From: Takakia lepidozioides | Taxonomy: Eukaryota; Plantae; Bryophyta | Direction of reading: 5' to 3' | DNA length: 64,000 nt | NCBI GenBank assembly: GCA_030704615.1 | Contig: CM060734.1 | Coordinates: forward strand, 25,420,001-25,484,000 | Shown here: positions 1-26,080 of the stretch, piece after piece | How the letters are laid out: the number at the start of each line of letters is the position of its first letter | Position numbering within the stretch: position 1 is the first letter of the stretch | Notes under the pieces: generated by a model | Databases searched by the model: none | What the model was told of the DNA's origin: nothing | The model's input: the letters and a program-made list of their open reading frames with translations, nothing else | Position numbers and translations under genes: made by a program

Positions 1-499
1 TCAGCTTCAGAGATGAAAGCACCATGCTGTAGGTAATTCCAGAGCACCTTGATGGTTTCAGATTGTGTACATGCATGAGCAAGCACGATTGGGAAGAGGA
101 CCAGTCAAGAGCAGGTTATAGTGACAAAGCTGAGAACTAGACTTGGGAATGCGAGCTTTCATTGTGTGAAGGATTGCAAGACCAAGCGAAAGGGCTGATT
201 TGGCTTGGGGCAAATTAGTGCACTTTGTGGAGTATGGTGAGATTGGGTTTCAATCTCGAGCTTCAACATTGAGAGGGCTCTTGTCATGGCAAAAGCAGGG
301 CTGGAACATGAGCTAAGAGATGCGACAAGGCCATGGAATGTGCACCTAGGGTTTCAGAGCTTGGAAGAAGAGCTCTTGCACCATAAGAGGAGTGTCTTGT
401 GGCTGGAAATGTAAGCCTTAGGGTTTCAGGAGCTTGGCAAAGGCTGTGGAGTGCTTAGTCTTGTCTTAGAGAGCATCAAGGAGCCAAGGAGCCAAGATA

Positions 500-980
500 G
501 GGGGCTGATACCTCTTGTGTGAAGGGGTTGCATGTGTGGAGCATGGATTCAGCTCATTGAAGCTTCAATCTTCAAGCTTGGAGGGCAAGCAAGGAAGAGG
601 GAAGGGCTGATTTCCTTTATGTGAGGGCAATGCATGTGTGGAGCATGCTTTCAGCCTGTTGAAGGCTTGTACTTTCAAGTTTGGGAGTGCAAGAAATGAA
701 GGAAGGGGCTGGTTTCCCTGTAGGGCATGTGTGGAGCATGCTTTCAGTCTGCTGAAGCTTGTATTTTCAGGTTTGTGGGTGCAAGAAATGAAGCAAAAGA
801 GCTGATTCTCTTATGGTGAGAGTGGGGCATGTGTGGAGCATGCCTTCAGCCCATTGAGGCTCTTGTTTTCAAGCTTTAGAGAGCTAGAACGGAAGGGCTA
901 GGGCTGGTTTCCACTTGGGGTGAAATAAAAGCATATGTGAGTTGGGGTTTCAACTTCAAGCTTGAAGGGAGCACAACTCT
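500..980 (+). repeat. ~100-bp degenerate tandem repeat (~5 copies) in the retrotransposon 5' region
   Basis: GCATGTGTGGAGCATG..TTCAG..TTGAAG..TTCAAG recurs at ~530, 632, 725, 828 and (degenerate) 932. Confidence 0.8.
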
Positions 981-1344
981 TGAAGCAGCAGGTGCAGGGG
1001 CTGGATTAGGTGCGAAGGGCATGCTATGGTCAAGAAAAGCACGTGAATGAGTGCCTACAAGGGCTGGAAGTCAGCCATGTTTGGTTAGTCGCCATAGGGA
1101 TCAATGGTGCTGTTTTGTGAGTTAAAAGGAAGCTTGTGCACTTAGTTTCGGTTGCAAACATCTTCCTTTGGAATTAGAGCTACTATTGGTGGTGTGTGGG
1201 GGCCATAAAGAGCAGGAATACCTTGCTAATTTCCTCACAGTCACCATAGCTCAGTGCAAAGAAGCCTAGAGTCCAAGAGACACAGACCCTAGCTTGGCAT
1301 GGCTAAACCCCTTGGAGAAATGGCTAAACTGCCATGAGTGGCCA

Positions 1345-1835
1345 TGGATGGGGCTGTGACGGGCTGTGACAGGCTGTGGCCTTTGGGGCTATGACCCCTG
1401 TGACCTGTGTAGGGCTGTGATGGGCTGTGGCAGGCTATGGCCTTTGGGGCTGTGACCCCTGTGACCTGTGTAGGGCTGTGACAGGCTGTGAGGGGCTATG
1501 AGGGGCTGCGACAGGTTGTGGCCTTTGGGGCTGTGACCCCTGTGACCTGTGTAGGGCTGTGACAAGCTGTGATGGGCTATGGCGGGCTGTGACAGGCTGT
1601 GCCCTGTGGCCTGTGGGGCTGTGATGGGCTGTGACGGGCTGTGGCGGGCTGTGGCCTGTGGGGCTGTGAGGGGCTGTGACCCTGTGACCTGTGTAGGGCT
1701 GTGACAAGCTGTGACGGGCTGTGGCCTTTGGGGCTGTGACCCCTCTGACCTGTGTAGGGCTGTGACAGGCTGTGCCTTGGCCTTTGGGGTTGTGACGGCT
1801 GTGACCAGTGATCTGTGTGGGCTTGAGCTGGTCTG
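1345..1835 (+). repeat. GGGCTGTGAC-based minisatellite with a larger repeating block
   Basis: Dozens of (g/a)ggctgtgac 10-mers. The block ggcctttggggctgtgacccctgtgacctgtgtagggctgtga recurs at ~1378, 1439, 1520 and 1723. Confidence 0.95.
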
Positions 1836-2567
1836 TGGTGGCCCGTGTTGACCTGTGGACGGCCTGTGCTAACTCGTGGAGGCACTGGTGAATTGCGTAA
1901 GGACTGGCATGTGGTCTTGAAGGCCGAATTTTGAAGCTCGTGGAGGGCGGTTTGAGGAGTATCTTCATGATATTCCCATGGTCATGCAAGTGAGGGAAGA
2001 GAGGAGAAAAAGAGTGTTGGGATGAGGGCATGCTGGGTTAGGCATTGCTTTAGCTTCTCTTCCTCGTAGTTTTTCACCCTCTCATTAGGCCAAGACCTTT
2101 CCGTAGGTGGAGGCAAGAGTCAGTTTGGGTTTGGGTTGGGGTGTCCTTGCAGGAGCAACACCGTGGAGTTGTTTTTGGTGTAGGGGAGTTGTCGTTCTGA
2201 TTTCTTGTGTTTGAATCCCCTCCATACCTGTATGCTTGACTGTGCGCCATGTTAGTTTTGTGTGGGCGCTTGTTTTTATAGGTGATTGGTCCGGATTTGA
2301 TCACCGGCCAGTCCTAGAGCATGTTGTCGATGGTGAGGCTGGGGTGATGACCAGTCAGACCATCATTGTTTCTCCTGTGGTGAGGTTGGAGGTGATGACC
2401 AGCCAACATAAGAGTGCTTGCGGCGGATGCAGGTGCAGGTGTAGGCTATGTTAGGAACCTAGTATTCCAAACCATAAGCCGCAACAGGTTCTCTACCCGG
2501 TTACCTTGTGGAGAGGGGGTTAGGGACATGTTCATGACCGGTTGAATGACAGCTTGTCAATACGGAG

Positions 2568-4613
2568 GTGCCACTAGTTGCTGGGGACAGTGCCGGTTCG
2601 AGCACTAGCGATACTAGTGGGTACACGAGACGAGGTGTGCGGTTTCGGCCACCTTCACCTCCTGTGTCTTCTACGGAAGGTTCTGATTCGGATTGTGAAT
2701 CAGGAGGACTCACACCGGCGGTGCAAGTTGTTTCCTTGCCATTGTTGTGGGACACAATGGAGGAGATGTATGGAGCTACCAAGGGGCCACGAAGGTACTC
2801 TGGGGCGGTGGGCACCATCGAGTTGGATGATTTTATCTAAGAGTTTGATAGTTGGTGTGATTTGCAGCAAATGCGCAATCCACAACTATTTACGCCTTTC
2901 ATGGCATGGAAGGGGCTGTTTCAGCACCTTGAGGGGCCGCCTATGGATGATTACCATGAGTTCAGGCGGGGGCATGAGGTTGAGATTGAGGAGTGGAGGA
3001 TGTACTGGTCACCCGACTATGTCTCCATCACTAGGGGCACTAGAGCCACGAGGGCAGTGGCTACACCTGCCGCTGCACCGGCAGCTTCAGCAAGCAGTAG
3101 TGGGACTAGTGGGACTGGTGGTACCGTAGCTACGACGTCCACCCAAGCCACTACCGCACCAGCATCAGTACCCGTGCCTGCCTTCAACCCTGTTGTGGAG
3201 TTCTTCGAAGAGTTGAGAGGGAACAACCAAGGGGTGAGGAAAGAGAAGTTGCGGAGTTTGCAAGAGTTCAAACGGAAGCCTACTGAGAGCTTGAGGGAGG
3301 CTTTCACTCGCATGAGGCGCTTGATAAATGTAACCCAAGGGGTTATGGAAGCTCAGGCAGTCCAATTCTGGTATGGGATATTGGACAAGGAGCTGAGGAG
3401 AAGGGTGCGGGATGCAACTCTCCTACAAGCGGCCCAACCTACCTTAGCAAATGTGTTTTTGCTGGTAGAGCGGATAGAGCTCAACATGGTGGAGGAACGA
3501 GTGGTCATGGTAGGATTTGCTACGAAGACACCAAGGGGTAGTGGTGCTCCTAGCCAACCACTACCTCAACGTGCTCAAGGCAACAAAGGGGCTCAGGTGA
3601 AGCTCAGGGAAGGACAGAGATGACCTCAGATGCAGGGGTCTCTCCCTTCATTTGCAGGCCAACAACGGGCAAAGGTGGTGTGTTGGACATGTGGAGGACC
3701 CCATGTCAAGAAGGATTGCCCAGAGGGAGGCAAAGGGCCGTCACATGCACAGCCTGCACAGTTGCACTGTGGGCATTGTGGCAAGCACGGGCATGGAGAG
3801 GCCTAGTGTTATGGTTTGCATCCTGAGTTGCGCCCAAGCCAGTTCCAAGGGAACAATGGTGGCCGGGGGTGAGGTGGGGCAGCCCAGAGAGGATGAGGTG
3901 GCTAGGCACGAGGTGTAGGCCAATGGCAAGCTCAACATGGCCAAGGACGCGGAGGTCAGGGTGTTGACCAAGGCATGGCCAACCGGCTTCAGCAGCTAGA
4001 ACAAAGGCTCGCTGCCATGGCTACAGCTCAGGTGGTACCGGCTCCCAGGCCGGATGGTCCACCTCCTGCTCCTGAGGGAGGAGATATGGGAGGCATGGGA
4101 TTCATGTGCGGAGCAGCACTACCACTAGTGCAGGTGGAGTCTGCTGCAGCCGTGACTCGAGGAACAACACGAGTTCATGAGCCACGAGGTGCAGAGGTGG
4201 AGTTGGATCCACAGCGTGGGGAGGCAAGTCGTCAGGCTAGGCTTCCTCAGTCATTCATATTGGCGGAGACAGTGTCGACGCCATCCATGGCACCTAGTTC
4301 TCGCCCGACTGTTACCGAGGCGGAGATTACTATGCCATTGGGAAGAGCTACATGGGTAGCACCACTACCTAGTGTTGCCAAGGCTACGGCAGCTAGTGTG
4401 CTGCTGGGAGCGGCCACATCTGTGTGCCAGGTTCCATTGTTCTTGGCTACCATGATTGCAACGCCGGGGGTAAGACCAGCTGAGGTGTTCAGGCTGGCAG
4501 CTACACTCTGTGAGAGTGGGGAGGTTACTTCATCTTCTGCGGAGATAGTGAGAGGTGTAGTGCCGGAGGGATCCTCGGATTTGAGGGTCAAGACTGCCAC
4601 GACGGCGCCGTAG
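2568..4613 (+). pseudogene. Retrotransposon Gag with two zinc knuckles, interrupted by in-frame stops
   Basis: ORFs 2568, 2862, 3975 and 4632 share one frame. Gag-like LDDFI*EFDSWCD and LQEFKRKPTESLREAFTRMRRL. Read-through of 3624-3975 gives CWTCGGPHVKKDC and CGHCGKHGHGEA*C. Confidence 0.85.
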
Positions 4614-4689
4614 CAAGCTGCAGTTGTCAGGTTGATGGAGCTGCCAGCTAGGCCAACCATTGAGCGCGCCATGGCGCCTGAAGTTGTCA

Positions 4690-5130
4690 TGTTAGACAAC
4701 CAGGATGACATTTTCTGTTTGAGTGGACCGGCAGGTAGGAGGTACCGGCCACTGCGGGTCTTGTTGGACTCGGGAGCTCAGCCATTGATGCTGGGCAGAG
4801 CTGCTATTGCAAGCTTGGGCCTCATGGAGGTAGATATGGAGCCTTGTCCTTTCCAGATACAGACGTCTCTGGGAGGATCGGAGCAGGCTCAGGACATGAC
4901 ACGACGTGAGTTGGCTATCAGACTACGGCCGGATCATCCTACAGATGGCTCAGTGATGCGAGCCAAGGCCATTGTGACAGATGCGGTCTCATACGATGTC
5001 CTGGTTGGTGGGGCAGTGTTGTACCCCATGGGCTTCACCCTTGATTTTTGGGAGGAATCAGCTTCCTATAGGCCTGGATGGCAGTCAGGGGAGGGCCGGT
5101 GTGTGCAGCTCCCTGTGACGTTCATAGGAG
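4690..5130 (+). pseudogene. Retroviral-type aspartic protease domain
   Basis: VLLDSGAQPLMLG catalytic motif and YDVLVG C-terminal motif in ORF 4632..5936. Confidence 0.85.
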
Positions 5131-5474
5131 GAGTTGCGGTTGCCCAGCGGGGCAAGATGCCGACACTAGCAGCATTCACATTTGTAGTGAGTTGGCCTGG
5201 AGAGTTGCTTGAGGGCAATGCTCATTCAGAGGATGACACAGCTCCAGGAGAGCAGGTTGATATGTATGGTATGGCGGAGTTGCCTGCCATGGTTGCTCAC
5301 ACTCCATTGTGGGGCTCGAGCAAGGATTTGCAGCGGGTTGCTGATCGACGGGTGCAACAAGCCTGGGTAGAGGCTTTTGTACCATCAGGAGAGGAGGACA
5401 GTGCGGGGATTGCACCAGGACCACCTCATTTGTCACCATTGGACACCACACCGATCGTGTGGCAGTATCCGGAT

Positions 5475-5885
5475 GAAGGCATTTGTCTTCTAGACTTGTT
5501 TGGCGGGATCAGCACCGGATTGGCTGTTTGTTTACAGGCATGTGTACGAGTTCGGCGTTACATGTATGTGGAGAAGGATGAGACTGCACGACGCGTTTTA
5601 CTTCGTCATGTTGCTCAGTTGGTGCAGCTGTACCCTGAGTTGTTGCCGGTGTCTGCAGTTCGTGGATATCAGCAAGCCTTGCCAGCAGACATTTCGTTGC
5701 TGGGGGCACAGGATTTGGAGCGGGTTGGCTCCATTGATCTGGTAGTGGCAGGTTGGCCCTGCCAAAGGCATTCATCAGCCAGGCATGGCAATGGATTGCA
5801 AGACTCGAGGTCGGGTCTGTTTTGGAAGATGGTACGGGTTTTGCGCCACTTGCAGCTTCATCAAGCTGTATCTCCAGCATATATG
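5475..5885 (+). pseudogene. C5 cytosine DNA methyltransferase domain (motifs I-V) in frame with Gag-protease, truncated just before motif VI
   Basis: LLDLFGGISTG (motif I, SAM binding), YVEKD (II), ADI (III), IDLVVAGWPCQ (IV, catalytic PC) and DSRSGLFW (V). The sequence then reads SPAY and is cut where ENV would be expected. Confidence 0.88.
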
Positions 5886-6290
5886 TTTATGGCAATTGGA
5901 CGGAGAGACGTATATGCGGTGATTACCGGCCTGTAAATCGTCAGACCAAGTCCGATAAGTATGTCATGCCAACACCAGATGAGATCTTTGATGTCATCGG
6001 GCATGCTAAGGTCTTTAGCACTTTGGATTTACGATCCGGATATCACCAGTTGCCGATCAAGGAGGCGGACAAGCAGAAGACGACATTCTGGGGGATCAAT
6101 GAGCACGGCAAGAATTGCCTATATCAGTGGCGGTTCTTACCATTTAGGCTTAAGAATGCTCCTGCAGAGTTTCAGAGAGTCATGGATAGGATTCTAGCAG
6201 GGGCGGACTTTGCTCGGTGTTACATAGATGACATCATCATCTTTAGTGCTACGGTGGAGGAGCATGAGAGTCACCTTCAGGTGGTCATTG
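5886..6290 (+). pseudogene. Ty3/gypsy reverse transcriptase fragment
   Basis: RRICGDYRPVN, FSTLDLRSGYHQL, LPF(R)LKNAPAEFQR and CYIDDIIIFS. Similarity stops after HLQVV; no RNase H or integrase follows. Confidence 0.92.
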
Positions 6291-7584
6291 CAGAAGGGAG
6301 GTGATAGTCTAGGAGTTATTCGGGTATGGGGGGCTCGGTTGCTTATACTATTGGCAGCTCAAGCGGTGACGGCAAGCGCTTGGGAGTTATGGGGTGTGGA
6401 GCTCGAGTAATCATTACTGGCGCAGCTTGGGCGGTGACGGCATGGAGCGAGGGCATCAGCAGGGGATGGACAACTCAACTGTGGATGGGTACTTGCAAAT
6501 ATCGACAGAGGAAAGGGATATTTAGGTGTTGTGCTCGTGATGTTTCTTCTTCTTTTTGCTATGACTTAGAATAGAACATGCAAGCTGGAGAGAGATAGCT
6601 TGGCAATGGCGTTAGGGAGAAAAACTTGGGAAATTGGGGGTATGAATGAAGTTGTGACAGAGTGAGTTCAAACCAGATGGATTCATGTGTTGAGAGAGCT
6701 GGAGTGTGTGCATTCTTGATTTGTAAGAAGAAGGATTCACTGGTGGTAGTGGTGTAGATGTTACATGACCTTTGTGACAATTAGATCTGTTACATTCTGT
6801 TTGCAGTCTGTTTTGCTTCAGTAGAATTAAGTCAATTAGTTATAGTCATGACCACAATGGAGGGGATTGCTGCAGAGTGTGGTGGTCATACAGGCAGGCT
6901 AATGGTTTCTGTGATCTGACCTGCTGCACATTGAAGGCCAACAGGATGGGCTCAATTGCATTGCACAACATATAGGTTGTAGTAAATTTGTGGAGGGTAT
7001 CTGTGTTTGCAAAGACAACTTGCTGCTGTGAGAAGATAACATGGGATGGGAGAGAGACCTGAAAATGCATATCATAAAGTGGCTGAGAGCATGATCAAGT
7101 GAGAAAGAGGTAACACCCTGAGATGACCTGCAATGTACTAGAGTAATTGTTCATCAAAAGGAAAACTTGCAAGGCTGTTGAATTGACTGAATTTCACTAA
7201 GTTAGAGAGATAGGCAGAACCAAAAAGAGTTTGTGAGCCTGACATACATGTTATCCTTATCATGATGTAAGTAAGAGAACATGGGATGGGAGAGAGATCA
7301 CATCTGCATACATGATCTGGAAAGAGGGGCTGCCTACTCAAACAAGGGAGAGGGAACATCCAGCAGTGTTTGCAGCATACCCTGTCTGAATGAAACCAAA
7401 ACAAGAAGTGTTGCATAGCTGGGTTTATCCTGAAAGTGCCTGGAAGTGTAAAAGAAAAAGTTGTATATCAATGATCTATAGTTGTAGGCTTTCTGGTGTA
7501 AAACTAACCCAACATTTGTGATGTTGTGTTTTGTGTTATGAGTACAGGACTCACCTACTGGCTAAGTTATGCAGTCACCAAACA

Positions 7585-8850: not shown

Positions 8851-9147
8851 GGCCATTTCCTGGCCTTGACGGCGTCTGTCGATGGCGTCCTTGGCCAGAC
8901 CTACCGTCCAGGATTCCAGAGCCCCGTCAAGGTGGGGATTCCCATGCCCATCGGGAGGCGAGGCCAGGTTCGAGACATCATCGCTACTGTCGACGGACTG
9001 CGAGGCGAACCGGTTTTCTCCCGACTCCCGCCTGTTGGAGTGGTCGCTGGTCTTCCTCACGTTGGAGCTGAGGGTTATCGTCTTCCGTGGTCGTCACCAA
9101 GTGTACTAGTTCTGGCGGTACAGGAGGAATTGTGTGTCGTCCGTTGA
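8851..9147 (+). pseudogene. 3' fragment of a root cap / LEA-related protein gene (frameshifted)
   Basis: LTASVDGVLGQTYRPGFQSPVKVGIPMP, then a frameshift to GGEARFETSSLLSTDCEANRF, and terminal CTSSGGTGGIVCR. These match the family's C-terminal motifs as I recall them. Confidence 0.8.
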
Positions 9148-9963: not shown

Positions 9964-11270
9964 TTAATGAAAGCCCGAGATAGCAACATAGTATGGGCGA
10001 ATGTCAGCTTTAGTCACCAGTCCGCTGCAAGCATAAGGATCCTTTTCAATAAATCTGTGCACCTCTGCACTGTTGGAAAACCACTGGCATATGGTCGGGC
10101 TAGGGATTGGACCTAGGACCTCCCCCATTCCGGTGGGGTGTTCTACCACTGAGCTACCCGTCCCTTTCTGTTCTCAGAGTGCCGTGCAAGGGCTATAGCC
10201 TTGACACCTCCAACATGCACCAAAGAAGCCAGTCCATATGAGATTAGTCAAATTTGCGAACAGATAGTTGCCAAAACTTGCATTTACTGCAAAGGATGTC
10301 ATTTTTGTCACTGCACTTATCACAAAGTTCATGCTCACAGATACAATCCTTGTGTTATATGATTTGCAGTGAAGAATTTGGCATGGCATTGAGCAATTGT
10401 CATCCCTCCAGCCTCTCCTCTCTCTATATGCCCTCTTTCCAAGCCTTAAAAAGCTGGAACTGGAGTGAGTTTCTTTAGAGTACTGATGTGGACCACCTCA
10501 ATTAGAAAGCTTGGTCCAACTAATGGAGAGAGAGTTCACTCCCATGCTCTCTTTCTTTCCCACCAAAAACGTGTTCTTTCACTCTCCTGTTATGCTCCTT
10601 CCAAATGGGGCTCAGAGTTTAAGGCCAAAAGGCTGCACCAAGTCGTATGGCAAATGTAATACATTTTTGCTTGGCATCAACAGTTGCCGACCAACTCATG
10701 GTTGGGGAGTTTGCACCTTCAATAGACGGGACATGGAAGATCAGCAAGGCACCATCGATAGGAGAGCCCCATGCCCCTCCTAGCAACAGCTTACCCTCCT
10801 CTACAAGCTGATTTGCGAGTGCCAAATGCTCTGCTCTGTACTGCTCCCGCCTTACCGGCACGTACTCTAGTCCAGGGCCACAAAGCATGCACAATGCAAA
10901 TCCATCATATCGAAAAAACTACCTCGATCCACCCCACCCTCCCCCCCCGCCTCCTTTTCTCTTTTCTGCCCTCCCCCTTGTCTTTGCCTAGCCTCTCTGT
11001 CATCTCCCTTCTCTTGCGAGAACTTGGCTGCGTCAATAGTTTCCTTCTTTCTTCTTTCTTTTTTTTACTTGAGGTTCTTCTTCAGTTCCTGTGGTTCTAC
11101 TACTTGAATCCCTTCCCAGGAAATAACAAATTTCTTTCCTTCACTCTCAATTACACACACCGTTTGCACGTAGGAAAGAACAAAAGCTGCACCCACCATA
11201 AATCAATACAAAATACTGTCGGGTGCCTTCATTCTTGTTTCCTCCTGCTGCAGCATTGCTGGATCCGTCC
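9964..11270 (-). CDS. YciI/YCII-related protein; exons ~11270-11197, 10866-10717 and 10064-9964 (start codon not resolved)
   Basis: The spliced product reads ..RQYFVLIY|EYVPVRREQYRAEHLALANQLVEEGKLLLGGAWGSPIDGALLIFHVPSIE|EVHRFIEKDPYACSGLVTKADIRPYYVAISGFH*. It has the R..H, G and DPY signature, and the GT-AG sites are phase-compatible. Confidence 0.82.
10092..10163 (-). other. tRNA-like element (tRNA pseudogene or SINE head)
   Basis: The minus strand ggacgggtagctcagtggtagaacaccccaccggaatgggggaggtcctaggtccaatccctagcccgacca folds as a 72-nt cloverleaf with an A box. T-loop (TCCAATC) and anticodon loop (CCGGAAT) are non-canonical. Confidence 0.75.
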
Positions 11271-13961: not shown

Positions 13962-14489
13962 TACAACAACCCTGGGTTCTTTCAACTGTGACAGGAATCA
14001 CTCGTGAGCAATCCTTTTACAGTTCAGGTCTTGATGGAACCATAATCACAAGATCTACAATGTCTTTTTGTAAAAAAGGTGAATTATAGTCCCTGTCCTA
14101 CAAAAGCCAGTGACTATTTCTAGATTAACCAACTCTAATATGCACAGCACCGGTTATCACATCCGGTCCACCCAGCCACCACGCCGTGCCTATCTCTTGC
14201 ATCAGTTCTATCGGATCCTAGTGTCCTCTAGGCCACCATCCTCAATCCTCTTCTCCTCTCCTCGTGTCTGCCAGAACCGCCGCTCTTTCTTCGTGTACAG
14301 GTGACCTTCACCACCTGTTGACCTCCTTCACCTGTTGACCTCCTTGGCAGGTGATCGGTACTCAAAGCTGGCAGTTGTCTCTCCAATCACGTGACACTGC
14401 TCCAGCTTTCCCCCACCTATCATTCACACCACCCCATGGCCATTTCCACCCAGAAGTCATTCAGACTTGTTGCCTAGAGGGCCATAACA
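13962..14489 (-). repeat. 3' LTR
   Basis: Direct repeat of 18487-19001 with roughly 15-20 substitutions by eye plus a 17-bp duplication (cacctgttgacctcctt). Confidence 0.95.
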
Positions 14490-15685
14490 AACTCCCCCAC
14501 TAAAGATTCATCATTGTCCGCAATGATATTGAAATGGGGAAAATCCAATTGCAGGTCACTCTTTTTTTCCCAAGTAGCTTCAGATTCTGGATAGTGATAC
14601 CACTTGACAAGATGTTCACGATATGAACGATTTCGAAGGTGTTTCATTCTTGTCTCCAGAATAGATTCAGGTTCAGCCAATAACTGACCTTCATTCATAA
14701 CTTTGGGTAGTTCAGGTAGAATATGACTGGGGTTTGCCACATATTTCCTTAGGAGGCTGACATGAAAGACGTCATGGATTTTCCAAGTAGCTGGCAAATC
14801 TAGCTGGTATGCCACAGATCCATAACACTTTAAGATCACAAAAGGTCCACAGAATTTTGGGGACAGCTTAGGACACTTGCCCAATTTCAACTGGCTTCTT
14901 TTGGGAGCAACTTTCAAGAAGACCTTGTTGCCTACCTCAAATTCACGGAAGCTTCTATGCTTGTCAGCATAGAACTTGGCTCTTTCTTGAGCACTTCTCA
15001 TGCTTCTCTTTACCAAATCCAACACCGAGTGCATTTCACGGACCATGTCATTGACAGACTGGACCTTAGACAATGGCGTAAAAAGAGAAGCTGGGGTCAA
15101 ACAGTCGCGTCCATAGAGTGCTTGAAACGGGCTCATCCCGATGGCACTATGGAAATTCTCGTTATAGGCAAACTCTATCAAATACAAGTACTGCTCCCAG
15201 GAAGTCTGTCTCTGACCAACATACATTCTCAGCATATCCTCAATGGTTCGGTTGGTCCGTTCTGTTTGGGCATCTGTTTCAGGATGATATGCAGTACTAA
15301 GTCGTAACTTGGTTCCCAAAAGCTTAAACAAAGCAGTCCAAAAATGACTTGTGAACTTCGTGTCCCTATCACAAGTGATCTCACAAGGTATCCCGTGGTT
15401 CCGAAAGATTTCTTTCATGAACAGCAAAGCCACCTGAGGGGCAATGACTGTCATTTTTGTGGGAATCAAGTGTGTTGTCTTAGACAGTCTATCAGCAACC
15501 ACCATGATGCTATTATGTCCATTTCTTGTCCGTGGCAGTGCCACTATAAAATCCATACTTATCGATTCCCAGTTTCCATTGGGAACACTTACTGGTTGTA
15601 ATAATCCAGGATGACATATCCTTTCTGATTTTGAGACTTGACATGGAAAGTATCTATCCACATACTCTATAATCTGTCTCTTCAT
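14474..15685 (-). CDS. Integrase with GPF motif and C-terminal chromodomain
   Basis: WESISMDFI, ITCDRD, AYHPETDAQTERTNRTIEDMLR, KLSPKFCGPF and EPESILETR..HLVKW..EATWE. Confidence 0.93.
   Translation of the reverse strand: MKRQIIEYVDRYFPCQVSKSERICHPGLLQPVSVPNGNWESISMDFIVALPRTRNGHNSIMVVADRLSKTTHLIPTKMTVIAPQVALLFMKEIFRNHGIPCEITCDRDTKFTSHFWTALFKLLGTKLRLSTAYHPETDAQTERTNRTIEDMLRMYVGQRQTSWEQYLYLIEFAYNENFHSAIGMSPFQALYGRDCLTPASLFTPLSKVQSVNDMVREMHSVLDLVKRSMRSAQERAKFYADKHRSFREFEVGNKVFLKVAPKRSQLKLGKCPKLSPKFCGPFVILKCYGSVAYQLDLPATWKIHDVFHVSLLRKYVANPSHILPELPKVMNEGQLLAEPESILETRMKHLRNRSYREHLVKWYHYPESEATWEKKSDLQLDFPHFNIIADNDESLVGEFVMAL
14490..14503 (-). other. Polypurine tract
   Basis: Minus-strand ttagtgggggagtt abuts the 3' LTR. 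Confidence 0.85.
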
Positions 15686-16797
15686 TCCTGGCCAGAAAAA
15701 TTTTTTGTAACGGCCACATAGGTTCTCTGAAAGCCCGGATGTCCAGCTATGGGAATATTATGACAGTCATAAATGATACGCAGTCGCAAATATTGTAAAG
15801 AGGAAATGCACATACGCATGTGATAATATAATATCCCATCACGCAACAAGTATGGACGGTACTTGTCAATCTCATCAGAGGTCCGACGGTCATGCAAGAG
15901 ACTTTCATATGGTGCTTTGAAAAACACATCATCAACATAATGATTCTTCACATCATCAATCATAAAGCTTTTCACAAGCGACACAACATTGACCATTGGC
16001 TTTCTAGAGAGTGCATCTGCCAGTACATTCTTTTTTCCCTTCACATACCGCAGATCATAATGAAACTGCTGAAGGAATTCAACCCATCGAATCTGACGAC
16101 GACTCAAATTGGGTTGTGTACTGAGAGATTTTAAACTCTCATGATCCGTTTCAATTGTAAAGTCCACAGGAAGCAAGTAGCGCCTCCATATCTTCAGTGC
16201 GTGAATCATAGCCAAAAGTTCTTTTTCATGAACAGGATAATTATGTTCAGTTGGACTGAGTTTTCTGGACGCATAGGTAATAACCTGACCACTTTGCATC
16301 AATACTGCTCCAATAGCGAGGTCACTCGCATCAGTGCAAAGCACTATCTCATTCCTGGTAGGATCAATTAGCTTCAAGACTGGAGCATGAGTCAATGCAA
16401 ACTTTAGCTTGTCAAAGCTAACATCACAATCTAGAGTCCAAGCTTCATTCCAATCTTATAAATTACCATGAGTTATCAAGTTACCGGGAATTACCAATTA
16501 CTGAAAGTAACTCAGGAAACTGCTCATGAAGTTCTTTAGTAGATCAGTCATCGGGGCTGCAATGCGAGAGAATGATTTGACACGCAGAAAGCTAGCAAAC
16601 CCAACAAAGCTTCTGACTTCTATTTTATCTTTGGGTTTGGGCCATTCGGCCACAACCTGAATCTTCTTTGAATCAATGGATACTCCATCCTTTGATATAT
16701 GAAATCCCAAATAGTCTATATGATCTACAAAGAACTCACATTTACTCTTCTTTGCAAACAGATGATTATGCCTTAAGATATCCAAGACCATTCTCAA
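15682..16797 (-). pseudogene. RT C-terminal part, RNase H and start of the integrase zinc finger
   Basis: KSKCEFFVDHIDYLGFHIS, LCTDASDLAIGAVL, EKELLA, TDHESL, NVLADALSR and H..PIAGHPG. Confidence 0.9.
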
Positions 16798-16799
16798 CA

Positions 16800-18433
16800 G
16801 CAGACATCAGAGAAACATTGGGGAGGGCTCGAGTACCTTTTAATTCAAAGGTTTTGCCAGAGGGTAAGGTACCGCTCACCAACCCATGCTTGCAAGCCAC
16901 CACCGCATCCACAATGTCAAGCCATTGCATCCCCAGAATGCAGTCGTAGCAAGCGCCGTTCCAGACTTCAAAATTTGCCTTCGTGTGCACCCCTTGCATG
17001 ACAACTGGCATAGTTGAAAGATGTTGTTGTGTGGTCTCCACCCCACCATTTGGTAGCATAATCTGAGATGGCTGCACCTCCTCTTGAGATAATCCCAACT
17101 TGTCTGCAAAGGACTTTGATAGCATGTTGTGGGTGCTGCTAGTGTCAATCAACAACATTGTTGGTTTCCCCGCCACCTGTCCCTGAACTCGAATAACATT
17201 GTGGTTGTAGGCCACTCCACCATCGACAACTGCAGCTGACACCCTCATATTGGGACCCTTTCCAGTGGCCGATCCTAAACAATTTCCGAGGTCTGTGATG
17301 GTTACGGGCTCCACCGGTTCTTCCACTACCAAGGCTGCAGTCTGTCGGAATTGTCGTTCAGGACAATCTGCTGACCGATGGCCGGGCTTATGACAATTGA
17401 AACAGAGCCCCTTCCTAAAATGTTCTTCCTGTTCCCTGGGACTTAGGCGCGGTGGATTTCCAACAATTGGTTTCTGTCGTCCCTAATTGTCGTTGTTCTT
17501 ATAGGGTTTGAACCTCTTCCAATTTCCCTTCCTTACTGGGGTGATCTTAGGAGAAAATGTCATCTTCTTCTTATTTTCCCCTGCACGAGCCGAGTATGCC
17601 ACTCGCTGTGCCTTGATTTCACATTCAAAATTGCAAGCCAATCTATAGGCTTCAACCTCAGTGCGGGGATTGTGGGCTTGACCTTATATTTCAAAGAGTC
17701 ATTTAGGCCATCCACAAAAAAAATCCACCCTGTTATCTTCACTGAGAGTTGGAAAATAGCTGGCATGCATTTCGAATTTGGTCTTGAACTTAACCACATT
17801 GGAACTTTCCTGTTTCAGGGTGAGGAGTTCATCCTTCATCTTATGAGCATAATCTCCAGGGAGATAGTGGGCAAGAAACACTGATCGAAACTTCTCCCAA
17901 GTATCAATTGGGGGTTTGCTATGTTCACGGTGTTCTTTTTTCTGACGAGACCACCACAATTTTGCTGCATCCCGAAGTTGTCGTTCTAATTTTTGCTTCT
18001 TCAGGGTAATCCTCTTCAAAGAATTCCTCGAGTGTTTCTAGGAACGACAAAATCTCTTTTGGCTTGACAGAAGTCTTACCCACAAATTCCGGCAGCTTCA
18101 CCATTCGTTTGATCTTGCGAGTTACATCTTTGTTTCTCTTAGCTGTGAACTCCAAGGAGCTAGCGTCGGATTGTGATTCGGCCTGGCTTCGCAATTCGTC
18201 ATGTGAAGTCCCTATGATTCTTTTCGCACCTCTCTCTTTGCAGATTGAAGTTTCTGGACTTCAGATCGAATGAGTGCACCTAGGGCTTCCATCTGTGCAT
18301 TAGAGAAAAGCTGACCCTGGCGATCTTCCTTACGCCGAGAGCTACGAGCATCTGAAGGTTCCATCTCTTCTGAGTTACCGTACGAGCTACGCCGCACGTT
18401 ACTCTCCGATCCTGGCAACGAGAGCTTGCTCAT
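16800..18433 (-). pseudogene. Gag (frameshifted), zinc knuckle and aspartic protease
   Basis: AAKLWW, TWEKFRSVFLAHY, LLTLKQ, CFNCHKPGHRSADC (~17365-17405), LIDTSSTHN and YDCILGMQWL. Confidence 0.88.
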
Positions 18434-18472
18434 AAATCCAAACGTTCCTTTTTATGCCCTTATCGTACACAG

Positions 18473-18484
18473 GCTCTGATACCA
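18473..18484 (-). other. Primer binding site (initiator tRNA-Met)
   Basis: Minus-strand tggtatcagagc, 2 nt inside the 5' LTR boundary. Confidence 0.93.
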
Positions 18485-18486
18485 CT

Positions 18487-19001
18487 TACAACTACCCTGG
18501 GTTCTTTCAACTGTGACAGGAATCACTCGTGAGCAATCCTTTTACAGTTCAGGTCTTGATGGAACCATAATCACAAGATCTACACTGTTTTTTTGTAAAA
18601 AAGGTTAATTATAGTCCATGTCCTACAAAAGCCAGTGACTATTTCTAGATTAACCAACTCTAATATGCGGAGCACCGGTTATCACATCCGGTCCACCTAG
18701 CCACCACGCCATGCTTATCTCATGCATCAGTTCTATCAGATCCTAGTGTCCTCCAGGCCACCATCCTCAATCCTCTTCTCCTCTCCTCGTGTCTGCCATA
18801 ACCGCCGCTCTTTCTTCGTGTACAGGTGACCTTCACCACCTGTTGACCTCCTTGGCAGGTGATCGGTACTCAAAGCTGGCAGTTGTCTCTCCAAACCTTC
18901 ACGTGACACTGCTCCAGCTTTCCCCTACCTGTCATTCACACCACCCCATGGCCTTTTCCACCCAGAAGTCATTCAGACTTGTTGCCTAGAGGGCCATAAC
19001 A
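18487..19001 (-). repeat. 5' LTR
   Basis: Direct repeat of 13962-14489. Confidence 0.95.
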
Positions 19002-20356
19002 ATTTGACTCCAATGAGCTGCATGCCAAAGGATTTGTTCGCTAATTTGAATCAAACTTGTGAGAGTCATCCTGTAGAACTGATCTATTGGGGAGATTGCT
19101 TGAAATGACAGAGGGGAATGTGAAGAAAAAAGTGGATACATCCAAATTTTGAAGGCTAAAATTTCTGAAGTCAAATTTTTGCAGTGAAACCCAATGTTAG
19201 ATTCTTCCAGCCTGTTTGATGGTGGTGTATGATGCATAATCATATCTGGAAGGGAAGTAAGATATACTCACTAAATGGGGAGCTGATCAGATCTCAACTG
19301 GGGATTCAGTCACATTCGGCAGTCGAACAAGGGGCTCTTGACCAGCTTCAAGTTTAGTGTCACCAAGGGAAAGACTTCTGAATTTCATCCAAACATCTGA
19401 TTTTTTGTTAGATCAATGCTGGCATGGCAATGTCTTTGCATTAATCAAGCTCTTCTAAGATTCTGCCTAAGCTGATCAATCTGTAGGGCAATGAGTGCAG
19501 GATATGGCAGCTGAGGAGGGAGTGTTTGGCTTCTAGGTGGGGCAGCACGTTCACTCCCTGAATGCTGAAAAGGGTCCCCAGTCTGGCACTGTTACTTTTG
19601 CAGGACCAGTGGATGGTTATCAGGGCGTCTGGATAGGGGTTGACTGGGACAATGGGCAAGGCCGTCACAATGGAACTGTAAATGGAATTCACTACTTTGA
19701 CACAAGTGGGGAGCAGTCAGGGTCATTTGAGCGATCCCATACTCTTAGTGTTGGGGTCTCCTTACTCGCTGCTCTCTCTTCCCGCTACAAGGCAAACCCA
19801 GATGAGTCAAGACAGGGTATATATTCCACTATCTCTGCTGTGTGTAGATAGACAATATGAGACGGAAAAAGTTGTCGAGGAGGCAACAAGCTCGGAGAAA
19901 TTTGAGTGACAGGACAGAGGAAGCCAGGAGGATGCAGAAAGAAGAAAAGGGAAAAATAAAAGTTTATAATGTCCAAAGGAGGCCCATAGGAGAACTATAT
20001 GATAGAGCCCACATGTACCTCAAAGGGAAAGTACCCCCTGCAAGAGGACCAGGCTTGATATTATTTAGGCCAACTTCACAGTCAGGGTCATCTTTTCTGT
20101 GTGTGTACATGGCATAATATGGCTGAGATTTAATGCTACTCAAGAGCTAAGTGATGATTCAGTTCTCTTTACATCTATTCCAGGTGTACAGAGCATCTGA
20201 CTATGTTTTTGGCCGAGCTGCTATCTAGATGGACAACTTCATTTCAGATTGTTGCTTGTTAGCATACATTGATATTTGTCTTTATGCTGCAAATGGCGCT
20301 GCTCCTAGATAGGTTGATTTATGATGCATTTGTCGTTTGGATTTTGCATTTTTCAG

Positions 20357-20477
20357 GTCCACCATATTATGCTAATCACTGCCTACAAGGATCAGCTGCA
20401 GCAACATCTTAACAGGGCTGTGAGTGAAGCTATGATGTTCTGCTAGAACACAGAGCAGGAACTCTACAAACTGACAG
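20357..20477 (+). pseudogene. Isolated exon of a class II KNOX gene (KNOX2 domain)
   Basis: ttttcag|VHHIMLITAYKDQLQQHLNRAVSEAMMFC*NTEQELYKLT G|gtaagg resembles the KNAT3-type [41 protein letters not shown]. The conserved W is replaced by TAG. Confidence 0.75.
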
Positions 20478-22499
20478 GTAAGGAGAACTTGGGCTTGCAT
20501 GTGTTTGTTAGTACGTACTGCAAAATAGAGTAGCCGCGGATTGGAGACACCTGATCCAGGAAATTGAGCTCAAGCCATTGTACCTCCTTTAGCCTAGCCA
20601 GAGGATGTTAAAGAGTCTAACGGCCGAGCTGCGTTTCTAGGGCCTGGGATATAGTTGTACAGAGGTAACTAATTTGGAAGGGCACTATGAACAGGGCACT
20701 ATGAACGTCCAGTTATCTGCAAGTTAAATACTTGGCTTCGAGCTATTATTACAACTGTCCTTGGAAATTTACTTACCCTTGGAAATTAACAATGCGTGGA
20801 CTCTGCAGGAGCATCCCCGATTTATGGCAAAGGAGCAGCTACTCTCTCAAGCTCGGCCCTCTCTTCTGGGCTGATTTCAAGCTGATCAAGGTCCAAAATG
20901 TACAAAAACTAGAGATCTACATTTCTACAGTCTATAGAAGACGATATAGAGTATAATAAGAGAGATTGTATTATTACATTTTGTGTGTCTTTTTATACAT
21001 GCTAGAAAGTTGTGTCTCTTGACACCACAACCGATTCTATTTTAGTAGTCACACATTCCCTATTGTGACCTTCACTCCCTATAGTTGTGACTCTTGAAAT
21101 GTCCTTTCATATATTAGATGAATGTACACTGGATGAATGTTGAGGTTGACTACTCAACACAAAACAAATATTTCTTGCTCACAATCGGAGCCTGTGTCAG
21201 CTGCTCATCAAGATCTGGGATTTGAGCCATAGGTGTACCAACACGAAGGCAAGCAGCGTGGGCCGCCAGTAATTCTGGATATAAAGGGTACTGTGCCACA
21301 ATCATTGCTGTCTGTTTTGCACTTACCCATTCTGCGTTTTGCCTTTATACATTGTCCGAGTAAGTCTGCATAATCACTCACCCGAAGGCGCCTGTCAGGA
21401 ATATCGATCTATGTACCATATAATACTCTCCGACCCTCAGGTACCTATCCTCAACAATTTGTCCCAAGTAGGTCCTTCCCGAGGTCCTTCCTGGGGTCCT
21501 TAGGAGGTCCTTTCTCTCTAGTAGCTGCCAGTACTGGCATAACTCCATCCTTCCTTACTGGTGCAAAGTACCCGCTGATCCATGGACGAGAATCTGCAAT
21601 GTTCCTCCCGCAGCAGTTCCCTCATGAAAAAGCTTTTGCATCACTGTTAATGCAGATCAAGGGACACTAGCCCCTCCTCAACCCCTGCAGGCCAGACCTT
21701 CGTGAACCTCAGTCATTAACATAATCTTGAACAAACTAACAAATCGAGAGAGAGGAGGAGTGACTACACTACACTTGTGCTTTGCTTCTCTCTCTCCCGC
21801 CCTCGCTCTCTCTCACCAAGCCATACATCGGTTGCCATCCCTGCGCCTGCTGCCCCCTCGTCTTCTCGCCCACCCATTTGCCCGCGGAAGACAATAGGAA
21901 TAGTGTAAGAACTTAATGGACGCGTGCGATCTGACGGTACTTTTGCCGGCAGCCTGGGCTCCTCCGGCGGGGCCCCTGTCAAAGCCTCCCCACCCCGCTA
22001 TGCTACTAATTCCACATTTGCCCATTCTTGAGCTTTTTTTTCTTTTAAAAAAAAGGAAAAGACTATGTACCCCCAACTCATTTGCCCAGTTTGGGAAGGT
22101 CAGGCAACCCGACACTGTGGGAAGAGCGAATCAGTGGGGCCGCAAGAGGCACTAGCGTAGAAATAGGAGGCCGATGGAAGGTAGATTTTTTGTAATATTT
22201 ATGCGGCTTGGGATGGGCGGTGGGCCCCGCCCTTCTAGATCATTCCAGAAGCAGCAGATGAGGTGGTGGGCCCCCTTCTAGAAGGCTCCACCACAGCCTC
22301 CAAAAACTATATAAGGAGGCTAAGGGGGGTTTATTATGATTGTCCCGCGTCCCTTTGATGGGCTTTGCAAGCAGGGCCCCCTTAGAAAATAAAAAGTTGG
22401 AACCTCAACCAAACGGGGACAGAGCCATTCGTTATGTATATTTTATTTGATCCCTGAAGTAGCATCCAGACTGTCTTTCTTTGTAATATCTCTAACGGA

Positions 22500-25400
22500 T
22501 TCCCTGGGTGTCTTGTCTCCACGTGCCTTCTTCTCCAGTTGTGCAGCCTGCATTGCCGACCCCATCACTCTTACCCCGCGACACCAGCGCATGTGTGCGG
22601 CTCTTCATCAGTCCCACACAAATGGTACTTCTCCATTTCATCCCAGTGTCTTGCACGCGCCACCTCCTGCCTTTGCTTGGCATTGGCTTTCAACGCTAGA
22701 TGTTCTTGGCGCATTTCAGCTAGGACTGCCAAGGCCTCGTCTTTATACAAGAATTCCAGTGGCACTACGTCATGAGGTCCAACTGGCACTCCGTCTACCC
22801 TTAGACAGGCTGGCTCGTGATCCTGATGATATACCAGCATGGTATCTTTTCTTGTTATTTCCTCAGTGGTGTTTGGTTTTGCCCCCTCGTGGCGGTCAGT
22901 CAGGGCACAGAGAGACGCGCATCCGTCTTCGCCGTTTTTTATCTGGAGATTGGGAGAGTCTGCAAGATGAGCATCAATTACGGGCACTAGCCCTTGCGGC
23001 ACGCGCCCCTCCCGCTTCCTCCACGCAGCCACCTCATCGGCCCACAGGCGACTTCGTCATAGTCTCATGTTAGGCCGTGTTGGCGAGTACTCACGGGCGG
23101 CCAAGGCTTTAGCACCTTCCTCACCAGCGCCTCCATCACCGAATACTGTCACTACCCTCGAAGCCCTTCACCCATCAGCTCAGGATATTCTACCGCTTTT
23201 TTGTTGAGGACTTCGAGCCAGACAGGATCTCAAGCTAGATCGGGATCAGGCTTCAGTCCCCATCTTGCAGCGGCAGGTCCTTCGGTCTCTTGATGAGCAT
23301 CACTTACGTGACTGTTTCTCTCCACAGGACTCTGCTAGTGGCTTCTCTCAGCTATTTCAGATTTGCTCCTTTATTGCTGCTGGCCGTATCCCTGCCCCAG
23401 TGGCCCGTCTCCTTGGGCCTCCAGATTGTTGGCTATGAGCAAACCCTCAGGTACTGGCATCCGCCTATCGCAGTTGGAGAGGTTCTTTACCGCCTTGTCA
23501 GCCGCTCACTTTGTCTTCAATTTCGAGATGCCTTCTCCGGACACCTCTTTCCGCACCAGTTCAGGGTCGCCACTCCAGGCGGTTGCGAGGCGGTGGTTCA
23601 GGGGATTCGTGCAGCTCTTGATCTTCATCCGGATTGGGTGGTCTCCAGGTCGACGTCACCAACGCTTTCAACACTGTATCACGAGCGGCTATCTTTCAGG
23701 AGCTCCGTTCAGCCGGAGAGATTTCCACCAGCTCATTCCGTTTGTTCGATTATTCTATGCATCCACCACTCCCCTATACTACAGTCATCATTCTCGCCTA
23801 GGTGAGTGCTCCATCATTCAGTCCGAGGTGGGACCCGCCAAGGCGATCCTTTAGGAGGACCTTTGTTTGCCATGGCTCATGTCCGCGCCCTCACGGCTTC
23901 TGCACAAGTTCACTCATCTTGTCTTTTTCCGTTGGTGGCAGACGACACGCACATTGTAGGCCCTGCCTCACAGGTACTTTCAGCTTCCTATCATTTTGTC
24001 ACCCAACTCTCTGTCGTGGGCCTTTTCAGTGCAACCTCGCAAATGTGCGGTGTGGTCTCCGTCCGGTCTCCCTGCAGATTTTGTCCTCCCTGCTCACTTC
24101 ATTGCTCTGCCCAATGGCATCAGAATCCTGGGAGTCCCTTTTGGCACCACCCAGTTCACAACGTCCTTTTTGGAAGATGCACATCCACCAGGATGCCACC
24201 CACGCCGATCTCCTTCTAGGCTCGGAGATGTATAGGTAGCATATGGAATCTTGACCAAATGTTTCCTTCAGCGTCCCTCATATCTCTTCCGCACTGTTCC
24301 ACCCAGCTCAGATTTCCTACACCTCTTATCTGGGTTTGATACTACCATAATGACTATCTTCGGGAGATTGCTAGGACCAGGAGCTCTGGAGGTGTCTCAG
24401 GGACTTTTGCCACAACAACAAGCCACATTGACCGTCTCTTCCGGTGGTGTGGGTCTTTAGTCCACTGTCACTACCGCCCCGTCAGCTTTCCTCGGCAGTT
24501 AGACATTGGTGGCGCCAGCCCTCACTTCACGATTTCTCTGTGACCATCGTCCCATCCTTATGGACGTCGTTGCACATGTCGCAGTGACATTTTACCCTTC
24601 CAGCAGCATCTCCGCTCTGCACGAGATCTTCTTCCGGCACCGGCACGAGCATGTCTACCACCATTTGAGCAGTTGGTTGCTCAAGGCCTCGACCATCTTT
24701 AGGAGTCCATTTCCGAGCGCGTGCACTGTCATTCCTTTTCCGGCATGCTCTCAAGTGCTTCTTCTGAGTTGCATCGAGCCCGACTTCTATCATGCGCAGG
24801 ACTGGAGCAGGGGCATGGTTGACAGCACGACCCACTATCTCCCCTATTTTCACTACTGCGCTCCGCCTTCGACTCGGTTGCCTCATCCTTCGGCATTGGG
24901 CCTTCAGCGCTGCGTCTGTCTTCAGCCCATCGATGACCTTGTCATCCATCTCCTCCGCTGTCCATGTGGTGGTGAGCGCACTGCGTCTCATGATATGGTT
25001 CGCGATGCGGTGGCATCTATTGCTCATGAGGCAGGGTACCATGTACTGCATGAGCAACCACATCTACGACCCACGCTCATGTCACACTCTACACGCCGCC
25101 GTGTTGACATCGTCCTATCTAGAGATGGTTTGCGTACCTTAGCAGATGTCGTTCTCGCCGACCCCACTCGAGCGGATCTGCTATCTCGCGCAGCTACCAC
25201 ACCAGGCACGGCAGCCACTGTAGCAGCCTAGGCCAAGGAGCGCAACTACAGCGATCGTCACCCCACCGACACATTTCTTCCACTGGCGGTCGAAATATTT
25301 GGCTCATTGCACCGACACTTCGACGATTTCCTGCAGACATGTGCACATCATGCAGCCAAGAGCGGGTCCACTGACATCCCACATGCCTCCGTCCTTGTCG

Positions 25401-25710
25401 CCTACTATCGACAACGTGTTTCAGTTGCTTTGCAGAGAGCACAAGCCATCTCTATTTTGTATCGGGCTGATGTGGCTAGCTCCGCGTCATCTCGTCTTCC
25501 GCCTCTGCCTGACACTTTGCCTATCTCCTTGCCTGATCTCCTCCAGGCTACTGGGAGGGTCGCTCTGCTTGAGTAGTTTACTATAGCTTCTGTTTTCGTC
25601 GCTGGTTCAGTAGCTTAGTATAGCTTTTGTTTTTTCTCTAGCTGAGTAGCTTACTATAACTTTTTGTTTTCTTCTTTGTTTCTTGTTCCTTCCCCCCCCC
25701 CCCCCCACCA
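22500..25710 (+). mobile_element. Non-LTR retrotransposon of the CRE/RLE type (RT + CCHC finger + restriction-like endonuclease), frameshifted
   Basis: PIAVGEVLYRLVSR, HQF.VATPGGCEAVV, GTRQGDPLGGPLF, ADDTHIVG, GIRILGVPFG, SSGGVGL, CVC..HLLRC..SHDMVRD, RRVDIV..ADVV..DP, AKERNY and FLPLAVEIFG. No APE domain seen. Confidence 0.88.
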
Positions 25711-25789
25711 CCTTTTTGGGAACTTCACATCATATACACGTTCACCCATTGTACATGTTGTAAATAAAGTCTTCCAGGTTTCATCATTT

Positions 25790-26080
25790 GGAGTTGCCTC
25801 ATAACCTTAAGTTTGTGGCACATCTGGAAGTCGAGATGTGCCTCGTTGTATGATGGTAATTCCCCAGCTTGTGTATTTGCCACTCGTGCTCGCATTTACG
25901 TTGATCTAATTATTCAAGGCCGGAAAATGTGGGAAATGTTGGTCTTAGAAGTACGCAGACAAGCGTGCGTGCCGCCTTGCTCAACGCCTTTGATGGAACT
26001 TGGGCCCTTCGAGGCATCCTTTGCACCAGGGCTGGAGTAGACCACCTGATGGCTGGAGACTCACCTAGCCCGTGGCCCTC
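25790..26080 (+). mobile_element. L1-type LINE C-terminal fragment
   Basis: LWHIWKSRC resembles the W..W..RN/C motif of L1 ORF2 C-termini. Confidence 0.5.

Follow-up and report, generated by a model that had tools for sequence, protein, structure and literature searches.

The stretch analysed, hereafter the window, is 64,000 nucleotides long and opens with a copy of a Ty3/Gypsy retrotransposon in which the first half of a DNMT3-type cytosine methyltransferase lies between the protease and the reverse transcriptase. Its parts and the other features of the window are listed in Table 1. Among the latter, the chromodomain of the decayed chromovirus seems, by eye, to lack the first aromatic-cage residue, which in the light of PMC3350952 and PMC6317226 hints weakly at a vascular host.

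Table 1. Features of the window (positions counted from its first nucleotide)
Feature	Position	Strand	Remarks
5' non-coding sequence, of the element itself or its repeat family	1-2756	+	Contig cover, self-BLAST
Gag	2757-3620	+	Met at 2757, stop at 2838; frame may begin further upstream
Two CCHC zinc knuckles	3681-3809	+	At 3681-3719 and 3768-3809; second interrupted by the stop at 3804
Aspartic protease	4671-5126	+	LLDSG at 4761-4775, DSG at 4767-4775
Protease-methyltransferase linker	5127-5492	+	About 122 codons; conserved in relatives (alignment)
DNMT3-type cytosine methyltransferase, N-terminal half only	5493-5882	+	From motif I (SAM binding) through the catalytic PCQ to motif V: DLFGGISTG 5493, VEKD 5568, ADI 5685, GWPCQ 5751, DSRSGLF 5802-5822
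Internal deletion junction	5882-5883	+	About 1.14 kb missing compared with relatives (motifs VI-X, linker, start of reverse transcriptase)
Ty3/Gypsy reverse transcriptase core	5883-6285	+	YIDD at 6221; frame differs from that of the methyltransferase; cut at 6285
Root_cap fragment	8851-9106		
YCII-domain gene, intron-containing	9970-10918	-	
tRNA-like (SINE-like) insert in YCII gene intron	10092-10163		
Decayed chromovirus	14474-18500	-	tRNA-Met primer site at 18484
Tubulin-folding cofactor E-like (TBCE-like) gene, intron-rich	19537-33300	+	CAP-Gly and LRR; some exons look frameshifted
KNOX1 fragment inside TBCE-like gene introns	21153-21344		Antisense
LINE inside TBCE-like gene introns	22393-25576		
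Integrase-core (rva_4) fragments of another element	38426-39113	+	
Satellite	46700-64000		About 17 copies of about 1015 bp with internal subrepeats of about 120 bp; many near-identical

Layout and decay of the window copy

A single plus-strand frame, from 2550 to 5882, holds Gag, both zinc knuckles, the protease and the first half of the methyltransferase. The preliminary description had placed these parts in one frame, with a linker of about 120 amino acids and methyltransferase motifs I-V, and our analysis confirms the order. It had also taken the frame to be open, which is not the situation here. Seven stops interrupt it, at 2838, 3621, 3804, 3870, 3894, 3903 and 4611, all before the protease and one of them within the second knuckle. 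There is no frameshift before 5882, and the register is intact up to that point. A gypsy reverse transcriptase does follow, as had been claimed (RVT_1, E = 1.6e-18 for 5738-6301), but it is truncated and stands in another frame, into which the deletion of about 1.14 kb has shifted it.

The Pfam scores of the upstream domains are weak and under the cutoff, both for Gag (PF03732, E = 0.011) and for the protease (E = 0.031). Both assignments gain support from probes of a Marchantia relative, to which the identity is 58-78%; for Gag alone the identity to Marchantia probes is 72-78%. The methyltransferase does match PF00145, the check that had been proposed for it, with E = 8.4e-9, above the cutoff, and is 73% identical to a Marchantia copy. 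The domain ends just before motif VI, so that the set of motifs I-X is incomplete. Measured against four related loci, the deletion at 5882/5883 comes to 1138-1183 bp and has removed the C-terminal half of the methyltransferase together with a linker and the beginning of the reverse transcriptase. RNase H and integrase are absent from the window copy.

Other copies were traced by aligning public contigs of several runs of the same organism to positions 1900-6500. In run X1, 42,288 of 3,038,600 contigs align to this part, and the family is therefore highly repeated, contig depth not being the same as copy number. Past 5881 other copies run on into sequence that is missing here (45 contigs of X1, two of X5, one of X8), and at 5883 contigs of other copies come in from different sequence. 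They likewise continue past 6285 (34 contigs of X1, two of X5, two of X12), beyond which the cover collapses. Run X12, guessed to be RNA, places 67 contigs on the stretch, a number that says nothing on transcription. At the other end, cover in runs X1, X2 and X5 is already high at position 1, apart from a dip at about 991-1260, so the 5' end of the element likely lies before position 1, outside the window. The 5' non-coding part includes a tandem-repeat patch at about 1347-1837. Two contigs of run X8, about 94-96% like the window, span most of the element (2107-5881); one of them begins with what we take to be a cloning-vector polylinker, and a piece of the family may have been cloned earlier.

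The seven stops before the protease identify the window copy as a pseudogene. It is a dead, internally deleted copy that cannot encode the enzyme.

A family widespread in bryophytes and its algal relatives

With the window domain as query, 18 long protein homologues were found; 14 of them are Marchantia polymorpha models, at up to 73% identity, and Sphagnum fallax contributes one. A complete Marchantia domain gave 632 matches. The best 120 of these come, as far as plants are named, from Marchantia (M. paleacea included), Calypogeia fissa, Riccia sorocarpa and Sphagnum (with two further species), and none of them from a vascular plant. Bryophyte copies are 66-74% identical in the DNMT domain. 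We also collected 80 metagenome loci that look peat-moss-like, one of them (L005) matching an integrase probe of Sphagnum fallax at 100%. Among viral contigs there was one weak match to the family, at 34% identity.

The order in the 80 metagenome loci is Gag-knuckle-protease-DNMT-RT-RNaseH-integrase. Where enough flank is available, a protease lies upstream of the DNMT domain in 66 of 69 related loci and a reverse transcriptase downstream in 57 of 65, and the fusion is thus a trait of the family, as the preliminary description had supposed; DNMT and reverse transcriptase share a frame in 43 of 59 metagenome loci. The rve integrase and RNase H were found in relatives only. A PHD finger follows the integrase in relatives, and domain scans at the Pfam level found no chromodomain in them. 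Motifs I-X are complete in several relatives, among them P0001, P0008, L003 and L005. All 80 metagenome loci are decayed, the longest open frame over the domain being 467 codons; open polyproteins of the form zf-CCHC-protease-DNMT-RT-RH-INT occur among algal-type relatives (P0150, P0283). By a profile search this domain order could be followed to Closterium and Klebsormidium nitens (read by eye as knuckle-protease-DNMT in the K. nitens model KFL_013780020, our P0222); the search also led to Scenedesmus, in which the domain comes after RNase H.

In both trees the window copy falls on its own branch within a clade of liverwort and moss copies, from Marchantia, Calypogeia and Sphagnum, with SH-aLRT values of 100 (DNMT) and 99 (reverse transcriptase). 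These are quick trees with SH-aLRT support only and a midpoint root; unclassifiable representatives were dropped, of the post-RNaseH rows only the first 35 (DNMT) and 22 (reverse transcriptase) were kept, the DNMT tree has no host DNMT3 outgroup and the reverse transcriptase tree no K. nitens sequence. P0222 shares the domain order and stands outside the bryophyte clade, with no resolved place in the DNMT tree. The window reverse transcriptase is at most 80% identical to moss-like copies, and the DNA about 65-80%, so that neither the Sphagnum sampled nor M. polymorpha is likely to be the host. The intron-rich TBCE-like and YCII genes, the fragments of KNOX1 and Root_cap and the chromovirus primed by tRNA-Met point to the genome of a streptophyte, probably a non-seed land plant, and the trees suggest bryophyte kinship; a search with the YCII exon matched no named plant. 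Judged from the trees and from the order shared with Closterium and Klebsormidium, the window family is probably an old streptophyte lineage, and it is widespread in bryophytes. The first half of this had been anticipated as a possibility; survival of the lineage is not confined to this plant.

A second architecture, RT-RNaseH-DNMT-integrase(-PHD), was observed in 82 of 146 distant relatives (P0139-P0281 with P0018, P0078 and P0124), including Scenedesmus sp. PABB004; another 18 have protease-DNMT-RT and 46 the DNMT domain only. It forms a separate 99% clade in both trees. This clade of its own, together with the Scenedesmus elements, indicates that DNMT3-Gypsy elements also occur in chlorophytes.

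Could the fusion have arisen just once, by passive capture of a host DNMT gene, or be a nested insertion or an artefact, whether bacterial or of the assembly? The window copy is, after all, a truncated pseudogene. A close homologue (P0044) is labelled as a bacterial MAG protein on a 2.4-kb contig, and phage Dcm proteins match the domain at 24-31% identity, with E down to 1e-15, among the eight listed of 425 records. Nevertheless, the domain occupies the same position and frame in mosses, liverworts, Closterium and Klebsormidium, which refutes one-off capture as a description of the family. The domain also has no introns and no DUF3444 (absent in Pfam scans of 17 family proteins), the latter being carried by host plant DNMT3, and the eight phage matches stay at or below 31% against 66-74% for bryophyte copies. 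The fusion is, moreover, present in contigs of independent runs. We regard capture or artefact as most improbable. The finding also carries a warning for annotators of bryophyte genomes: many of the gene models with PF00145 are pieces of transposons.

Enzyme type and possible role of the methyltransferase

The best PDB sequence match of a complete family domain (P0019) is DNMT3A (E = 6e-12), followed by DRM (1e-8) and M.HaeIII (3.5e-4). For its predicted structure (pLDDT 71, pTM 0.77) all fold matches listed are DNMT3A, DNMT3B or DNMT3C, with a top E of 8e-15. By sequence and predicted fold, the element-borne domain is of DNMT3 type, with an unrearranged motif order and no introns. In view of the phage Dcm matches, its ultimate donor may have been either a host DNMT3 or a prokaryotic DNMT3-like gene.

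Between families the DNMT domain has pN of 0.21-0.28 against pS of 0.63-0.79, the latter near or at saturation, and is similar to the protease in this respect; where dS could be computed, dN/dS is 0.12-0.25. On these ratios the domain is under purifying selection. Within the moss family dN/dS ranges from 0.3 to 2.2, as expected of decayed copies. The argument that the fusion carries a functional domain gains support for the family, in which the domain is conserved under selection, and fails for the window copy.

Cytosine methylation is the main weapon of a plant against retrotransposons. That an element should keep a DNMT3 of its own, from streptophyte algae to mosses and liverworts, is a puzzle. 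Beyond the domain order, the single frame, the catalytic motifs, the selection and the bryophyte clade with its algal cousins, all of which we observe, we infer a role for the enzyme. The window holds a dead copy of a repeated Ty3/Gypsy family whose polyprotein DNMT3-type domain, in active copies, probably methylates the element's own new cDNA. The domain would be made with Pol and packaged in the particle beside the reverse transcriptase. It would methylate cytosines, probably in CG, on double-stranded cDNA before or during integration, and new copies would thus arrive pre-marked. Methylation of cDNA by an element-borne DNMT was proposed by de Mendoza et al. (PMC5890265), who report that DNMT3 domains borne by DIRS elements of Symbiodinium methylate CG in yeast.

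In the same study the Klebsormidium Gypsy domain (KnitGypsy-Dnmt3) gave no methylation in yeast, a result that its authors call inconclusive because human DNMT3B failed too (PMC5890265). This inactivity, and the PHD finger after the integrase in our relatives, would suit a non-catalytic DNA- or chromatin-binding module, one that guides integration together with the PHD finger, for example. Such a role is unlikely in view of the residues retained across the 80 loci, F-G-G in 77, PC in 69 and ENV in 78; these counts are biased, as the scan patterns contained the motifs, but catalytic and SAM-binding residues are kept likewise in Marchantia models that the patterns did not pick.

The active domain might also work in trans, released by the protease to methylate host chromatin, sister copies or competitors and so limit harm or competition. 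It does form part of a polyprotein that the protease processes, flanked by a linker on either side, and in yeast the isolated DNMT3 domains of DIRS elements methylated both genomic DNA and a plasmid (PMC5890265). However, no targeting domain is attached to it, the Klebsormidium methylome is ordinary and plant-like, and the benefit would be shared with copies that lack the domain, which would make its long retention harder to explain. We consider action in trans quite unlikely and retain methylation of the element's own cDNA as the preferred reading.

The composition of the window bears on this question as well. Observed/expected CpG is 0.51 in the element, 0.51 in the neighbouring chromovirus and 0.47 in background DNA, an equal depletion that gives no sign of self-methylation. 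The 37 differences listed fall into seven CG, ten CHG and 20 CHH contexts, a division in which neighbouring mutations can cause misclassification. Neither the depletion nor these contexts separate self-methylation from methylation by the host. Over the whole window CHG is not depleted (observed/expected 1.02-1.07), as against 0.59-0.68 in the peat-moss-like loci, a contrast that may point to a host whose methylome differs from theirs.

Ends of the relatives and comparison with known systems

Information on the ends comes from the moss-like relatives and not from the window copy. Their repeats are laid out as A-coding-B or A-coding-B-A-B, in full in L049 and L080 and in part in L005. Repeat A is about 338 bp long and starts with TG; repeat B, about 118 bp, comes right after the polypurine tract and ends with CA (L049, L080, L005, L064 and others). 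Two complete direct LTRs are absent in the relatives, the ends being A (5') and B (3'). Exact 4-bp target duplications flank seven of the ten loci with both ends, two further loci having one mismatch and one having none, compared with 0 of 90 cross-pairs. The internal B|A junction is a palindrome, CA-GC-TG or CA-AT-TG (CA-NN-TG). The A|B junction is different in each of three elements, one of which retains primer-site letters, as in end-joined two-LTR circles. A follows the first B in only three of the 18 loci listed; the A-coding-B form could result from recombination between B copies.

In L057, L058, L072 and others, repeat A is followed by 11-12 bases that can pair with a site lying some 32 nt downstream of the TATA box. 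Self-complementarity of at least 9 nt occurs in ten of 24 rows, some of which represent the same insertion, with six of the 24 mis-cut. These features suggest self-priming of the Tf1 type in the moss-like relatives.

Under the model that we have in mind, the integrase would cut the cDNA at its internal B|A junction rather than at linear ends, and would do so within the repeat that reverse transcription is expected to leave in terminal position. Such an internal cut is reminiscent of IS3-type circle junctions. We offer only tentatively the wider picture of an ancient, once very successful land-plant Gypsy lineage whose active DNMT3 pre-methylated its cDNA and which integrated via the internal CA-NN-TG junction of circular or linear cDNA. 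If true, such an integrase-type retrotransposon would follow a replication cycle of its own. Should the host be a fern or lycophyte, the element would also be the first of its kind in a vascular plant.

The Gypsy-borne DNMT3 architecture has already been published for Klebsormidium; our results carry it over to land plants and add one more family, which is highly repeated. In the openly accessible text that the search covered we found no report of DNMT3-bearing Gypsy elements in land plants, though an earlier mention elsewhere may exist. The accessible main text and supplements of PMC5890265 leave Marchantia unmentioned. An opinion paper (PMC6338049) describes methylase-encoding transposons as absent from 'land plants, such as tracheophytes', and the passages of PMC12344493 and of a 2026 preprint that cite such elements call them only 'streptophyte'. 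With copies in Marchantia, the question left unanswered in 2018, namely what purpose a Gypsy-borne DNMT serves, moves to a genetic model plant for which methylation mutants exist.

The closest known system is KnitGypsy-Dnmt3 of Klebsormidium nitens (de Mendoza et al., 2018; PMC5890265), likewise a Ty3/Gypsy element with an intronless DNMT3-type polyprotein domain under purifying selection. The legend to its Fig. 4c gives a DIRS-like repeat layout, to be compared with the A-coding-B-A-B layout of our moss-like relatives; target duplication, priming mode and a PHD finger are not given for it in the accessible text. The K. nitens DNMT shares about 34-40% identity with the Marchantia copy and is not part of the bryophyte clade. 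The family described here resides in a land-plant-type genome and appears far more abundant; its copy in the window is dead and without ends.

SymbioDIRS-Dnmt3 of Symbiodinium also has a DNMT3 in the Pol frame, and its domain methylates CG de novo in yeast (PMC5890265). It is, however, a tyrosine-recombinase element and an independent capture, unlike the present family with its DDE integrase and 4-bp duplications. The host DNMT3 of non-flowering plants (Yaari et al., 2019; PMC6453930) shares the DNMT3-type catalytic domain and the unrearranged motif order; host plant genes carry DUF3444, and that of K. nitens is multi-exonic, in contrast to the element-borne domain, which has neither feature. 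Finally, EpiLTRs and DAM-LTRs (bioRxiv 10.64898/2026.05.21.726589) are also Ty3-type elements with DNA methyltransferases. Their DNMT is sister to DNMT4 and is accompanied by a DAM domain and a chromodomain, and according to the authors it was captured separately from that of the streptophyte Gypsy-DNMT3 elements.
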